Assembly (NCBI GenBank): GCA_016932855.1
Contig: JAFGCB010000064.1
Location: 1,767 to 65,766 of the forward strand
Length of the DNA: 64,000 bases
Direction of reading: 5' to 3'
Origin: Candidatus Omnitrophota bacterium
GTDB lineage: Bacteria; Omnitrophota; Gorgyraeia; Duberdicusellales; Duberdicusellaceae
A program made the translations under genes and the position numbers. The notes below the pieces were generated by a model. That model searched no databases. It had not been told where the DNA came from and saw only the letters and a list, made by a program, of their open reading frames with translations. This document shows, piece after piece, positions 22,886 to 36,341 of this stretch. Every line of letters begins with the position of its first letter. Position 1 is the stretch's first letter.

Positions 22886-24100
22886 ATGGAATATTGTAAA
22901 AAATGCGTTTATCCCAAGAATACGGCGGTCAAATTAGACTGGGATGATGAGGGAGTGTGTTCCGGATGCCGTTATTTTGAAGAACTGGACAGGGCTGACT
23001 GGAAAGAGAGAAGGCTTATTTTAGATCGGCTCTTGGACAGATACCGCAATAGCGGTAATACCTACGATTGTATTATTCCGGTAAGCGGGGGCAAGGATAG
23101 CCATTATCAAACATATCTTATAAAAGAAGTCTACGGATTAAATCCCTTGCTGGTTACTTTTAACCATATTTGCAGCCCTTTGCTGGGAATAAAGAATATG
23201 GCGAATATAGTGGAGAAATTTAAGGTCGATCATATCAGGTATACGCCGAATCCGGAAGTAATTAGAAAATTAATGAAGTATACCCTTAAAAAAATGGGAG
23301 ACGCTTGCTGGTTTTGTCAGACGGGGGTTGTCACCGTTCCCATCCAGATAGCCGTGCGCTACAGGATACCTCTTATTGTTTGGGGCGAACACGGCTGGTC
23401 TCATCTTTTCGGCAAAAGTAAGCTTAGCGAGACGGTAAAATTTTCCACCGAAGAACGTACAAAACTTTTTATGCGGGGTTTGAGCGTAGATCAGGTCCTT
23501 AAAGATAATCCCGAATTTGAAAGAAGGGATTTAAGCTGGGCTATTTATCCCAGCGAGGAAGAAATACAGAAGGTTGGCATTTCCGGAATCTATTTGGGTA
23601 ATTATCTTAGATGGAATCAGAAAGAAATAACCGAGTTCGTCATTAAGAACTTCGGTTTCAAGACCAGGCCCAAGGCCAGGACGTACAATACATACGCTGA
23701 TGTTGATTGCCATTTATGTTCGGGAACAAACGACTATTTGAAATATCTTAAGTATGGGTATGGCCGGGCCACTGACCACGTAAGCCAAGATATTCGCGAG
23801 GGCAGAATAACCCGGCAAGAGGGGATAAAACTGCTTAAAAAGTACGAACATGTCCGGCCCGAAGACCTCGATACCTTTTTTAAAGAAATGGATTTGACCG
23901 AGGAAGAGCTTATGAAAATAGTAGAGCCTATGCGTGACCCAAACGTATGGCAGAAACAAGCCGACGGTTCCTGGGCTAAAAAAGTCTCTATTGACCCGGA
24001 CAATTTAGTTGATATTTCCGGAGTAGAAGAAATCGAAAAGCGGCTTAATTTCGTGAAGAACTGGGCGCCGGAAGAGCTTGACCCGAGGTGGCATTTCTAA
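22886..24100 (+). CDS. N-acetyl sugar amidotransferase (PP-loop ATPase, PseA/WbuX/WbpG-like), paralog 1
   Basis: N-terminal Cys-rich segment (CKKC…CSGC), PP-loop SGGKDS, DACWFCQTG motif; ~404 aa. Confidence 0.7.
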   Translation: MEYCKKCVYPKNTAVKLDWDDEGVCSGCRYFEELDRADWKERRLILDRLLDRYRNSGNTYDCIIPVSGGKDSHYQTYLIKEVYGLNPLLVTFNHICSPLLGIKNMANIVEKFKVDHIRYTPNPEVIRKLMKYTLKKMGDACWFCQTGVVTVPIQIAVRYRIPLIVWGEHGWSHLFGKSKLSETVKFSTEERTKLFMRGLSVDQVLKDNPEFERRDLSWAIYPSEEEIQKVGISGIYLGNYLRWNQKEITEFVIKNFGFKTRPKARTYNTYADVDCHLCSGTNDYLKYLKYGYGRATDHVSQDIREGRITRQEGIKLLKKYEHVRPEDLDTFFKEMDLTEEELMKIVEPMRDPNVWQKQADGSWAKKVSIDPDNLVDISGVEEIEKRLNFVKNWAPEELDPRWHF

Positions 24101-24158
24101 GTTTTTTAAAAGACGCTTTTTATTTTTTCTAGCGTTAAATAACTTAAGGAGGCAAATA

Positions 24159-24923
24159 ATGAAGAAGTCAGCTACCAAAACGATGAATTTAAAAACAAAT
24201 ACCAGGCGAAATTTCAGCTATATTCAAGAACTAGAGGATTATTTTAATCTTAGTCCCGGATCCTATGCGGAAAAAATGGCGGCTTTCGCCAAATTTGTAC
24301 CGCGGCAGCGGCTGACGGATTTTTTGTCCCTCTATGAAATTTTTAAAAAAGTTCTTTCCGTTCAGGGCTCTGTGATTGATTGCGGGGTTTACAGGGCAAG
24401 GACGCTTATGACCTACGCGCAATTGAGCGCCATACTTGAACCCATGAATTATCAAAGACAGATTATAGGTTTTGATACCTTTAAGGGTTTTTTAAAAATA
24501 GATAAGGAGGACTCCAAGTCAACCCATCAGGAGAGGAAGGTGGGCGGGTATAAGGCGGAATGTTATGATGATTTGCTGCGCTGCATAGAGCTGTTTGATA
24601 AGAACCGTTTTTTGAGCCATATCCCCAAGGTGATATTGGTTAAGGGTGATATAGAAAAGACCGCTCCTAAATATTTGAAAGACAATCCCCATACAATTGT
24701 CAGCTTGCTTTCGCTTGACTTGAGTTTATACGCTCCTACAAAGGCAGCTCTTAGGATATTTGTCCCCCGTATGCCAAAAGGCGGTATTATTACCTTTGGC
24801 GAAATGAATTGTTCGGATTTCAGCGGAGAGGTTATCGCGGTAATGGAAGAATTAGGTATTAATAAATTAAGGGTTCAACGAAATCCTTTTGATACGGTAG
24901 CCTCATACGCGGTTTTAGAATAG
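24159..24923 (+). CDS. TylF/MycF-like (macrocin-O-methyltransferase family) SAM-dependent methyltransferase
   Basis: …LSLYEIFKKVLSVQGSVIDCGVYRARTL… resembles the TylF-family O-MT core. The internal start at 24159 has a GGAGG SD 7 nt upstream. The longer ORF from 24078 overlaps the preceding gene. Confidence 0.55.
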   Translation: MKKSATKTMNLKTNTRRNFSYIQELEDYFNLSPGSYAEKMAAFAKFVPRQRLTDFLSLYEIFKKVLSVQGSVIDCGVYRARTLMTYAQLSAILEPMNYQRQIIGFDTFKGFLKIDKEDSKSTHQERKVGGYKAECYDDLLRCIELFDKNRFLSHIPKVILVKGDIEKTAPKYLKDNPHTIVSLLSLDLSLYAPTKAALRIFVPRMPKGGIITFGEMNCSDFSGEVIAVMEELGINKLRVQRNPFDTVASYAVLE

Positions 24924-34943: not shown

Positions 34944-34976
34944 GAAGGCTGCTTTAAGGCAGGCTAGAGAATATTT

Positions 34977-36341
34977 ATGAGAGAATACTGTTACTTAACG
35001 GCGGTAGAGTTAAGCGATCTAATCAAGGCCCGCGAGGTTTCGGTTGAGGAAGTTATCCGCTCGCATTTAAAACACATAGAAGAGATAGAGGATAGGGTTA
35101 AAGCATGGACTTTTTTAGATAAAGAGCGCGTTATTCAGCGGGCTATCGAGCTCGATGAAAAACTGATTGGTGAGTCGGCTAAGGGTTCTTTGTACGGCAT
35201 ACCGGTTGGCATAAAGGATATTTTTAATACTTATGATATGCCGACAGGTATGGGAAGCCCTCAATGGGAAGGTTTTACGCCTGGTAACGACGCCCGTTGT
35301 GTCCATTACCTGAGGATGAATAACGCGGTATTCCCCGGTAAGACCGTTACTGCCGAATTTGCCGTGCACGCTCCGGGAAAGACCCTCAACCCTTATAATC
35401 CTGAATATTCTCCGGGAACCTCTTCCAGCGGTTCCGCGGCTGCTGTTGCTTCTTTTATGGTGCCCCTTTCTATCGGCACGCAGACAGCAGGTTCGATTAT
35501 AAGGCCTGCCAGCTATTGCGGGGTTTACGGGTTTAAGCCTTCTTTTGGCCTTATTCCCAGGACTGGCGCATTAAAGACAGCCGATACATTGGATACCGTA
35601 GGTATGTTCGCAAGAAGCCCGCAGGATTTAAGGTTGCTTTTTGAAGTTATGAGGGTCTGGGGAGAAAATTTCCCCATAAGCAATAAGATATTAAATGATA
35701 AGTTACGGCAGAAGAAAGGCCAGCGGCCCTGGCGAGTGGCGGTAATTCCGGAACTGACAAAGAGGTTTAGCAAGCCCTATGCCTATAAGGCAGTGACTTC
35801 TTTGATAGAGAAGCTTGAAGAGAAAAATGACGTTGAATTGGTGACCGCGGACTTTCCTATTGATATTGAGGAAGCTTTTGAAATTCATACCACTCTTTAT
35901 GAAAAAAGCCTCTCCTATTATTTTCAGAGGGAATTCAGCAATACGGTTTTCATAAGTAAGATAATACATGGAATGATTTCCAGAGGTAGCGCAATAACGG
36001 TGGATGAATATACGGTTGCCGTAGAGAAGCAAGACTTGTTATATAAGCGTTTAGATGATTTTTTTAGTAAGTACGACCTTATTTTGACTCTTTCGACTCA
36101 GGGGATAGCTCCTAAAATGGGTGATGATGACAGTTTTGATACCTGTTTTCTTTGGACTCTCTGCGGAGCCCCGGTCATTAATATACCTATAGGTAAAGGT
36201 CCGCAGGATATGCCTTTCGGCGTGCAGATTGTAGGCAGGCGTTATAACGATTATTTGCTTTTGCGTTTTTCCGAATTGCTCGCTGATTACGTCGGCCAAA
36301 GGCAAAATATATTTTCGGGCGAAGAGAAAATAAACATATAG
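34977..36341 (+). CDS. amidase-signature (AS) family amidase, GatA-like
   Basis: Gly/Ser-rich AS signature (GTSSSGSAAAVAS) and the conserved …GIPVGIKD… Lys region; ~454 aa. Confidence 0.7.
   Translation: MREYCYLTAVELSDLIKAREVSVEEVIRSHLKHIEEIEDRVKAWTFLDKERVIQRAIELDEKLIGESAKGSLYGIPVGIKDIFNTYDMPTGMGSPQWEGFTPGNDARCVHYLRMNNAVFPGKTVTAEFAVHAPGKTLNPYNPEYSPGTSSSGSAAAVASFMVPLSIGTQTAGSIIRPASYCGVYGFKPSFGLIPRTGALKTADTLDTVGMFARSPQDLRLLFEVMRVWGENFPISNKILNDKLRQKKGQRPWRVAVIPELTKRFSKPYAYKAVTSLIEKLEEKNDVELVTADFPIDIEEAFEIHTTLYEKSLSYYFQREFSNTVFISKIIHGMISRGSAITVDEYTVAVEKQDLLYKRLDDFFSKYDLILTLSTQGIAPKMGDDDSFDTCFLWTLCGAPVINIPIGKGPQDMPFGVQIVGRRYNDYLLLRFSELLADYVGQRQNIFSGEEKINI

Follow-up and report, generated by a model that had tools for sequence, protein, structure and literature searches.

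The locus under study raises the question of how an N-acetyl sugar amidotransferase (NASAT) obtains its nitrogen when the usual partners of this family are not encoded beside it. When acidic surface sugars carry acetamidino groups, their charge is neutralised and the way in which phages and the immune system recognise them is altered; to our knowledge, the nitrogen source of the amidotransferases that form them has never been demonstrated biochemically, those linked to HisH and HisF included. We have analysed a stretch of 64,000 nt (the window) from an uncultured Candidatus Omnitrophota bacterium (GCA_016932855.1, contig JAFGCB010000064.1, positions 1,767-65,766 of the forward strand), which is a giant and very gene-dense surface-sugar cluster with around 60 genes on the same strand.

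Two NASAT paralogs are encoded on the forward strand, WbuX#1 (22886-24100) and WbuX#2 (33846-34943), having only 37% identity to each other. Both are members of the family described by the NCBIfam model TIGR03573 ('WbuX, N-acetyl sugar amidotransferase'), with scores of 351.6 and 356.1 bits, respectively, and a cut-off of 203.2 bits. The family-defining motifs, which are the PP-loop SGGXDS and the tetracysteine CXXC...[GN]XCXXC (PMC10607449), are intact in the two proteins: WbuX#1 carries the PP-loop SGGKDS at residue 67 and a zinc tetracysteine reading CKKC...GVCSGC from residue 4, and in WbuX#2 SGGKDS is at residue 79 and the tetracysteine reads CRRC...GICQAC from residue 16. The sequence-only reading of this DNA, which had proposed two paralogous N-acetyl sugar amidotransferases bearing a PP-loop and cysteine clusters, thus stands, and neither of them shows a loss of catalytic residues. 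The PP-loop is kept in 64/64 amidase-linked NASAT homologs. The only solved structure in the family, LpNASAT from Legionella pneumophila (PDB 8WEX, PMC10607449), shares both motifs and aligns with residues 27-337 of WbuX#2 at 153 bits, its 468 residues in the PDB entry making it longer than WbuX#2 by extra N-terminal residues; the text of that study names ammonia once, as a reactant, and the terms glutaminase, HisH and HisF are absent from it (PMC10607449). As judged from family membership, WbuX#1 and WbuX#2 would presumably both turn an N-acetyl group of a sugar into an acetamidino group.

The systems with which WbuX#2 shares synthetase family and presumed reaction are WbuX/WbuY/WbuZ of Escherichia coli O145, WbpG with HisH2/HisF2 of Pseudomonas aeruginosa O5, and the WbuX-HisF2-HisH sets of other polysaccharide loci. 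This HisH-HisF-NASAT arrangement is that of the relatives of WbuX#1, whereas the clade of WbuX#2 is a separate one, lacking HisH/HisF and being linked or fused to an amidase. Compared with the three-gene WbuX/WbuY/WbuZ-type system, the window is devoid of HisH-like and HisF-like components: no open reading frame of at least 120 residues matches PF00117 or PF00977, a six-frame tblastn of the 64 kb with the E. coli HisH and HisF proteins gives nothing at E≤1e-3, and custom models, built from 58 HisH-like and 63 HisF-like NASAT partners, yield at best E=0.19 and 5.9 bits within the window, with positive controls at 200-297 bits. The absence of a hisH or hisF homologue from the window, which had been claimed from the letters alone, therefore holds by three approaches. 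Among 80 loci encoding relatives of WbuX#1, HisF adjoins the NASAT in 68 and HisH in 61, and when only the 52 loci of at least 8 kb are considered HisF is found in 50, with HisH/HisF adjoining in about 95%; the amidase is absent from all 80. The closest neighbours of WbuX#1 in a neighbour-joining tree are in fact HisH/HisF-linked NASATs, and in three loci encoding its close orthologs (L166-L168) HisH/HisF were likewise not found within 10 kb. By its sequence relationships, WbuX#1 is then assigned as an orphan member of a clade that is normally paired with HisH/HisF, and the lack of any visible donor for it in the same operon shows that the genes of a NASAT and of a dedicated partner need not lie together, a point that weighs against the model proposed below for WbuX#2.

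A distinct scenario is found for WbuX#2, whose stop codon is followed after 33 nt by an open reading frame (34977-36341, forward strand) encoding an amidase-signature enzyme (PF01425, 263.2 bits; threshold 27), the proposed ammonia-generating partner of this NASAT. The protein had been described as GatA-like, of which the assignment to the amidase-signature family is correct and the likeness to GatA is loose, as it is closer to malonamidase E2 (MAE2) of Bradyrhizobium japonicum (1OBI, 1OCK and related entries). Among solved structures MAE2 gives the best sequence match, with a full-length alignment of 190 bits over residues 61-437. Residues Lys80, Ser149 and Ser173 align with the MAE2 triad Lys62, Ser131 and Ser155 and are invariant in 30 homologs, and Arg176, located three residues past the nucleophilic serine, is equivalent to the carboxylate-binding Arg158 of MAE2 and is present in at least 90% of 30 homologs; the Gly/Ser-rich signature corresponds to GTSSSGSAAAVA. 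MAE2 is also the nearest solved relative by fold, an amidase homolog from the fusion clade (see below) matching it with a TM of 0.87 at 32% identity, and the comparison of the amidase domain with GatA results in a TM of 0.78-0.80; no curated family model of the malonamidase-E2-like type exists. Orthology to GatA was considered and rejected, the TIGR00132 score of 227.7 bits falling short of the 481.1 bits required and the alignment being confined to residues 13-298, the N-terminal half; GatB and GatC domains are not found in any open reading frame of the window. Not being a GatA orthologue, the amidase cannot be assigned glutamine specificity by transfer from GatA. GatA, within GatCAB, is the sole established amidase-signature glutaminase subunit of an amidotransferase that we know of, and in the pair under study the acceptor is a PP-loop ATP pyrophosphatase rather than GatB. 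MAE2 frees ammonia from a small carboxy-amide as a stand-alone catabolic enzyme; unlike it, the subfamily of the window amidase is locked to NASATs in sugar-biosynthesis loci.

The structural relatives of the amidase also comprise allophanate hydrolase, urea amidolyase (5i8i) and ClbL (8es6), and the last of these reportedly transfers an acyl group to an amine in colibactin synthesis. An amidase acting in this manner would form an acyl-enzyme and pass the acyl group to a sugar amine, the product being a substituted amide or amidine and not a plain acetamidino group. The very diverse N-substituents of nonulosonic acids known from the literature are compatible with such a transfer, but we regard it as highly improbable: ClbL scores 79.7 bits versus the far higher value of malonamidase E2, a dedicated acyl donor is absent from the conserved neighbourhood, and the NASAT keeps all family motifs for amidine formation.

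We have carried out an analysis of the genomic context of the best 80 amidase homologs among 185,579 species genomes, picked blind to their neighbours, the resulting loci spanning more than 15 phyla, archaea included. In all 80 a WbuX#2-type gene (53-70% identity) adjoins the amidase on the same strand, being located upstream of it in 78, so that the pairing is conserved throughout the sample. The junctions are tight, with a median gap of 3 nt, overlaps of 1-11 nt in 27/78 cases and single fused open reading frames in 4/78. Fusion is in fact recurrent, as more than 55 protein-database clusters (850-890 residues) correspond to full-length NASAT-amidase fusions whose domains were checked, one of which comes from the cultured Solidesulfovibrio alcoholivorans; separate gene pairs are found in cultured Massilia, Pseudoduganella and Methylosinus, as well as in candidate-phylum-radiation bacteria and Nanoarchaeota, whose genomes are very small. 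In an AlphaFold2 model of an 875-residue fusion the mean pLDDT is 88.6 and the pTM 0.84, and as low confidence is restricted to the linker, the model would point to a defined packing of the two domains against each other. Moreover, 71 amidase-linked NASATs form an exclusive clade together with WbuX#2 in the neighbour-joining tree, and the distance matrices of the amidases and their NASATs are strongly correlated (Mantel r=0.84, with 0/999 permutations as high). HisH/HisF are present in merely three of the 80 amidase loci, where they flank a different NASAT paralog; the amidase-linked and HisH/HisF-linked distributions are complementary. Amidase relatives at 36-37% identity occur in unrelated contexts, e.g. 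beside a TRAP transporter, indicating that the link to NASATs is specific to the close subfamily.

These results bear directly on two other accounts of the pair. The locus is gene-dense, and with some 60 genes on one strand a fortuitous neighbourhood in a crowded polysaccharide cluster might have been envisaged; the recurrence of the pair in 80/80 independently retrieved loci, as well as in fused proteins, refutes this account, to which we assign virtually no weight. Alternatively, WbuX#2 could be fed by a HisH/HisF pair encoded elsewhere or by free ammonium, the amidase being an accessory neighbour unrelated to nitrogen supply. The search for these partners covered one contig, and WbuX#1 evidently works in the same operon without a neighbouring donor, both of which would be in line with this possibility. 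However, the invariable adjacency, the overlapping junctions, the many independent fusions and the co-variation argue for a direct functional coupling, and the pair is carried even by the very small genomes mentioned above, so that we consider a remote supply very unlikely. Taken together, all the comparative analyses carried out, namely adjacency, tight junctions, fusions, the exclusive clade, co-variation and the complementary distribution, support the amidase as an alternative partner that replaces HisH/HisF, which is what the sequence-only reading had suggested; we infer the ammonia role itself and glutamine as the donor.

The sugar on which the pair may act can be approached from the neighbouring genes, those up to the Acetyltransf_3 GNAT described below being on the forward strand. 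The window holds PseB and PseC, with which pseudaminic acid synthesis begins as steps one and two (14349-16513; TIGR03589, 458 bits, cut-off 408; TIGR03588, 525 bits, cut-off 424), and a fusion of PseG with a PseH-like GNAT (GNAT domains at residues 366-495), which is followed by PseI (19489-22080; TIGR03590, 172 bits, cut-off 154; TIGR03586, 467 bits, cut-off 340), each of PseB, PseC, PseG and PseI scoring above its equivalog cut-off. A CMP-nonulosonate synthetase-like cytidylyltransferase (16578-17330; PF02348, 107 bits) has a homolog within 10 kb in 31/80 amidase loci, mostly just 5' of an oxidoreductase. The latter, a Gfo/Idh/MocA-type enzyme (17333-18334; PF01408 and PF02894), scores under every NCBIfam cut-off, its best matches being sugar and inositol dehydrogenases, and has homologs in 60 of the 80 amidase loci. 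A DegT-type aminotransferase additional to PseC (18351-19619; PF01041, 311 bits), under the cut-offs of both PseC and LegC, has homologs in 65. Finally, homologs of a GNAT N-acetyltransferase of the Acetyltransf_3 type (26549-27097; PF13302, 70 bits) lie within 10 kb in 70/80 loci and directly flank the pair in 50/80, and fusions of such a GNAT with a WbuX#2-type NASAT exist (e.g. P0211), which fits a sequence of acetylation and then amidination. The locus further encodes a formyltransferase (22130-22828) and an FkbH/N-acyltransferase fusion (28465-30975), and Amidohydro_2 candidates for deacylation are present as well.

Considering these elements, WbuX#2 and the amidase probably constitute a two-component amidotransferase, which in some lineages would be a single polypeptide, the release of ammonia by the amidase for the PP-loop enzyme being the likeliest mechanism. 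The amidase would hydrolyse a small carboxy-amide through its Ser-cisSer-Lys triad to yield ammonia, with glutamine as the default guess for the donor and asparagine or another amide as possible ones; the PP-loop enzyme would use ATP to activate the carbonyl of the sugar N-acetyl group, and ammonia would displace the activated oxygen to give the acetamidino group. By supplying ammonia, the amidase would take over the role of the glutaminase HisH and of HisF in WbuX/WbuY/WbuZ and WbpG/HisH2/HisF2. As substrate, a pseudaminic-type nonulosonic acid in nucleotide-activated form is likely, or else one of its precursors. The companion oxidoreductase and aminotransferase would make the amine, to which the companion GNAT probably adds the N-acetyl group.

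Linkage and fusion alone do not separate a nitrogen donor from the enzyme of the next step, and an amidase-signature domain fused to an ATP-dependent enzyme can mean consecutive steps, as in urea amidolyase. According to this account the amidase would donate no nitrogen and would instead hydrolyse an amide or amidine bond in the sugar intermediate that WbuX#2 makes or uses; it might be a de-N-acylase, freeing an amine for another acyl group, comparable to allophanate hydrolase acting after urea carboxylase. Enzymes of the amidase-signature family cleave many amides, allophanate hydrolase and urea amidolyase being among the structural relatives found, and the formyltransferase and FkbH/N-acyltransferase fusion in the locus would require a free amine. 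Nevertheless, the NASATs of the WbuX#2 clade would be left without an ammonia source, whereas those of the sister clade nearly always have a dedicated one; the flanking GNAT and the GNAT-NASAT fusions would make an acetyl group merely for its removal; the locus already has its deacylation candidates; and malonamidase E2, the nearest relative of characterised function, has a small free carboxy-amide as its substrate, with the carboxylate-binding arginine kept. We thus consider consecutive action unlikely, and retain the delivery of ammonia by the amidase as the preferred reading.

A TylF-like methyltransferase (24078-24923, forward strand; PF05711, 28 bits) lies directly 3' of WbuX#1, and this pair is kept in L166, L167 and L168. 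Campylobacter jejuni has NASAT paralogs, PseA and PtmG (Cj1324), which decorate pseudaminic and legionaminic acids with acetamidino and N-methylacetimidoyl groups. WbuX#1 with its methyltransferase resembles PtmG/PtmH, and the window has the full pseudaminic acid pathway; by analogy, N-methylation of an amidine is a possible role of the TylF-like enzyme, and two amidinated positions in this organism, as had been suggested earlier, are plausible. A more comprehensive reading, possible but in our view doubtful as a whole, is that the pair is a self-contained amidotransferase with a novel architecture, the first in which a PP-loop ATP pyrophosphatase is fed by an amidase-signature domain and, after GatA, the second amidase-signature nitrogen donor; with the oxidoreductase, aminotransferase and GNAT it would add an extra acetamidino-amino group to a CMP-activated pseudaminic-type sugar, and WbuX#1 with the methyltransferase would complete a nonulosonic acid whose two amidino groups differ from each other, a kind of sugar of which we know no earlier description, a single amidase perhaps feeding both NASATs.

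Our literature search for a link between NASATs and amidases, PseA/PtmG included, found no paper, and the data point to a widespread mode of nitrogen supply for the NASAT family that is in none of the papers found. GMP synthetase, NAD+ synthetase and asparagine synthetase B all have an ATP pyrophosphatase domain that is fed ammonia by an attached or associated amide hydrolase; their glutaminases belong to the class I triad, nitrilase and Ntn types, so that with an amidase-signature module PP-loop enzymes would have recruited an ammonia-releasing partner independently once more. The second type of partner, being widespread and sometimes fused, would provide a simpler experimental system, such as the single polypeptide of the cultured Solidesulfovibrio or the gene pairs of the cultured Massilia, Pseudoduganella and Methylosinus. 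Hundreds of genes now named just 'amidase' could be better annotated, and the conserved five- to six-gene unit can serve as a marker for predicting which uncultured bacteria and archaea make nonulosonic acids with amidino modifications.

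The two ORFs that the sequence-only reading had taken for paralogous sugar amidotransferases, at 22886-24100 (WbuX#1) and 33846-34943 (WbuX#2), are both N-acetyl sugar amidotransferases (NASATs), scoring 351.6 and 356.1 bits, respectively, against TIGR03573 (cut-off 203.2). Each contains the PP-loop SGGKDS and the zinc motif CxxC...GxCxxC, which are family-defining in the sole structural paper (PMC10607449); WbuX#2 aligns with structure 8WEX at 153 bits, and the two share only 37% identity. The placement of an amidase-signature ORF directly after the second amidotransferase also holds: it occupies 34977-36341 on the + strand, starts 33 nt past WbuX#2 and matches PF01425 at 263 bits. 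The absence from the 64 kb of any homologue of HisH or HisF, the partners in the usual acetamidino systems, was borne out by three approaches. GATase and His_biosynth Pfam domains are not found among the window ORFs of at least 120 aa, six-frame tblastn of E. coli HisH and HisF against the window gave no match, and neither did custom HMMs trained on 58 HisH-like and 63 HisF-like proteins adjoining NASAT genes, the best E being 0.19 and the positive controls reaching 200-297 bits.

The description of the amidase as GatA-like had to be revised: it is no orthologue of GatA (GatCAB subunit A), scoring 227.7 bits against a cut-off of 481.1, with sequence alignment to the N-terminal half only. Among proteins of solved structure, malonamidase E2 (MAE2) of Bradyrhizobium japonicum is nearest in sequence (190 bits, residues 61-437 of the amidase) and, at the level of the fold, a fusion homolog reaches a TM of 0.87 at 32% identity to MAE2, as against 0.78-0.80 for GatA. 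Lys80, Ser149 and Ser173 are the counterparts of the MAE2 triad Lys62/Ser131/Ser155 and are invariant in the subfamily, while the nearly invariant Arg176 corresponds to MAE2 Arg158, the residue mutated in entry 1OBK. This amidase subfamily is captured by no NCBIfam model.

We have scanned an alignment of 30 close amidase homologs (A1) against 185,579 species, each represented by a single genome, and at least 478 genome stretches encode a relative of the amidase. The best 80 of these loci (43-54% identity), chosen by the amidase alone, were studied, and co-occurrence across genomes proved complete among them, since a WbuX#2-like gene directly adjoins the amidase on the same strand in 80/80. The adjoining NASAT is 53-70% identical to WbuX#2 and 33-43% to WbuX#1, and lies upstream of the amidase in 78 of the loci, with a median gap of 3 nt and overlaps of 1-11 nt at 27 of the 78 junctions. 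These 80 loci come from Nanoarchaeota, Halobacteriales and many candidate-phylum-radiation lineages, as well as from Verrucomicrobia, Planctomycetes, Chloroflexi, Acidobacteria, Ignavibacteria, Bacteroidota, Nitrospirales, Desulfobacterota, Campylobacterota, Firmicutes and Alpha-, Beta- and Gammaproteobacteria; the pair is also carried by cultured bacteria, among them Massilia, Pseudoduganella and, on a plasmid, Methylosinus. The distance matrices of NASAT and amidase correlate with r=0.84 (64 loci), a value matched in 0 of 999 permutations, and a chance adjacency of the two genes is excluded. No second amidase-signature gene was found in the retrieved loci. Amidases of 36-37% identity, from a plasmid search, stand in unrelated contexts, one adjoining a TRAP transporter, which indicates that the link to NASAT is a property of the close amidase subfamily.

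In four loci (Dehalococcoidia and Desulfarculia, two each) NASAT and amidase form a single ORF. A protein database search with one such fusion retrieved over 55 clusters of proteins 850-890 aa long that span both domains, including a protein of the cultured Solidesulfovibrio alcoholivorans, and in a fusion-profile search the fusions fall into three representative clusters at 50% identity (P0154, P0155 and P0170). The AlphaFold2 model of one fusion has a mean pLDDT of 88.6 and a pTM of 0.84, being uncertain in the linker only (about residues 380-400), and these values imply that the packing of the domains against each other is predicted with confidence. The WbuX#2 clade holds a wider variety of fusions (P0150, P0151, P0158, P0170, P0197, P0205, P0204, P0209, P0211), with a partial second PP-loop domain between NASAT and amidase (~1150 aa), a partial PP-loop ahead of NASAT (~600-650 aa), or GNAT-NASAT, NASAT-formyltransferase and APS-kinase-NASAT arrangements.

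As a control, metagenomes were scanned with a WbuX#1-based alignment (A2), which yielded 80 loci of 36-51% identity. A HisF-like gene adjoins the NASAT in 68 of these 80 and a HisH-like gene in 61, rising to 50/52 and 48/52 in loci of at least 8 kb, and the amidase is present in 0/80; the frequent recovery of HisH/HisF shows that their detection is sensitive. Among the 80 amidase loci HisH/HisF occur in three, exactly those with extra NASAT paralogs, and it is these other paralogs that they flank. Neighbour joining of 169 NASAT domains places the 71 amidase-linked sequences and WbuX#2 in an exclusive clade, the nearest neighbours of WbuX#1 being HisH/HisF-linked. We consider it unlikely that distant HisH/HisF serve WbuX#2 and that the amidase is an accessory. 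One Chthoniobacterales MAG locus (L020, 1371-14891) holds three NASAT paralogs, two HisH-like and two HisF-like genes together with the amidase, and offers a natural setting in which partner specificity could be tested.

The 80/80 adjacency, the fusions, the co-variation, the exclusive clade and the complementarity with HisH/HisF make the alternative ammonia-donor partnership, suggested at first from the sequence, the best-supported reading. The amidase would act on a small carboxy-amide and the ammonia set free would be used by the PP-loop enzyme WbuX#2; it is probable that the amidase in this way replaces HisH/HisF. Allophanate hydrolase carries out the hydrolysing step within urea amidolyase, and the amidase could likewise perform a consecutive step, hydrolysing the sugar's own amide or amidine. 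This main rival we judge improbable, as the WbuX#2 clade would then be left without a nitrogen source and the flanking GNAT would be futile. A ClbL-like acyl transfer by the MAE2-related amidase is also a less likely activity than ammonia release.

The pair belongs to a wider module. In the best 80 amidase loci its companions are an Acetyltransf_3-type GNAT (70/80, immediately beside the pair in 50), a DegT aminotransferase (65/80), a Gfo/Idh/MocA oxidoreductase (60/80), a NeuB-type synthase (45/80) and a CMP-sugar synthetase (31/80). The window holds all of them (17333-19619 and 26549-27097), separate from its complete Pse set. Taken in the order oxidoreductase, aminotransferase, acetyltransferase and NASAT, the module matches the known logic of WbpB/WbpE/WbpD/WbpG; the role of WbpG is given in PMC10607449. 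By this analogy, the pair would amidinate an N-acetyl group that the companions make, either on a nonulosonic acid or on one of its precursors. The Gfo/Idh/MocA oxidoreductase and the DegT aminotransferase may add a third amino group. Such oxidoreductases, with no assigned role, occur in ordinary flagellin glycosylation islands too, although the PseB/C/G/H/I set in the window is itself complete and separate.

Pfam and NCBIfam scans show the window to be one very large surface-polysaccharide locus, with ~60 large ORFs, all on the + strand, and an even G+C of ~0.42. It contains two nonulosonic-acid pathways, whose NeuB-type synthases lie at 3714-4796 and 21052-22080 and whose cytidylyltransferases lie at 8633-9373 and 16578-17330, besides flippases, a Wzy-like polymerase, glycosyltransferases and many tailoring enzymes. 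Pathway 2 is a full pseudaminic acid set over the curated NCBIfam cut-offs (PseB, PseC, a PseG-GNAT fusion and PseI). The PseG-GNAT ORF (19489-21036, a longest-ORF call from GTG at 19489) overlaps the aminotransferase at 18351-19619 by 131 nt; since the PseG model aligns from residue 35 on, its true start is probably further downstream. Pathway 1 (1-10362) differs from the Pse set, comprising a NeuB-type synthase, a CBS and GHMP kinase fusion, a nucleotidyltransferase, a CMP-synthetase, a class IV aminotransferase and GDP-mannose dehydratase/epimerase genes.

Five B12-binding radical SAM enzymes (12931-14319, 43555-44937, 45018-46439, 58661-60046 and 61227-62759) and one of SPASM type (60110-61201) are encoded, an unusual density for a single polysaccharide locus, as are both subunits, alpha and beta, of a thiamine-dependent E1 dehydrogenase (51142-53211). 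Two weakly matching ORFs, Capsule_synth/BFO_1060-like (36386-38023) and polysialyltransferase-like (40235-41380), are candidate nonulosonic-acid transferases. Between both NASAT genes lies a block (28465-33817), conserved also in the homologous loci L166, L167 and L168, that encodes an 836-aa fusion (aminoglycoside-3-N-acetyltransferase-like, FkbH and HAD) followed by a MaoC dehydratase, an SDR and a C-methyltransferase, and which looks like a branch producing a glyceroyl or hydroxyacyl N-substituent. The ORF at 24973-25722 (249 aa) has no Pfam match and adjoins an Amidohydro_2 ORF (25686-26513). It was considered as a divergent HisF and rejected, as the HisF-like HMM does not match it and as it shares 26% identity with a double Amidohydro_2 protein of 524 aa from locus L001, over the N-terminal half of that protein. 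The two ORFs appear to be a split amidohydrolase, possibly a de-N-acylase.

WbuX#1 falls among the HisH/HisF-linked NASATs in the tree, yet has no such neighbours in the window, and neither do its orthologs of 70-73% identity, which show the same operon layout with the WbuX#2-amidase pair 8-9 kb downstream. After WbuX#1 in the window (22886-24923), as after all these orthologs, comes a TylF-like methyltransferase, an arrangement resembling PtmG/PtmH, with which C. jejuni makes an N-methylacetimidoyl group. Its nitrogen may come from the same amidase, from free ammonium or from distant HisH/HisF.

In a full-text literature search we found no paper tying an amidase to NASAT, WbuX, WbpG, PseA or PtmG, and in the databases the fusions are named 'N-acetyl sugar amidotransferase' only and the separate proteins 'amidase'. 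Both the enzyme families and the type of reaction are known already; the partnership of NASAT and amidase and its architecture are, as far as this literature search shows, not.
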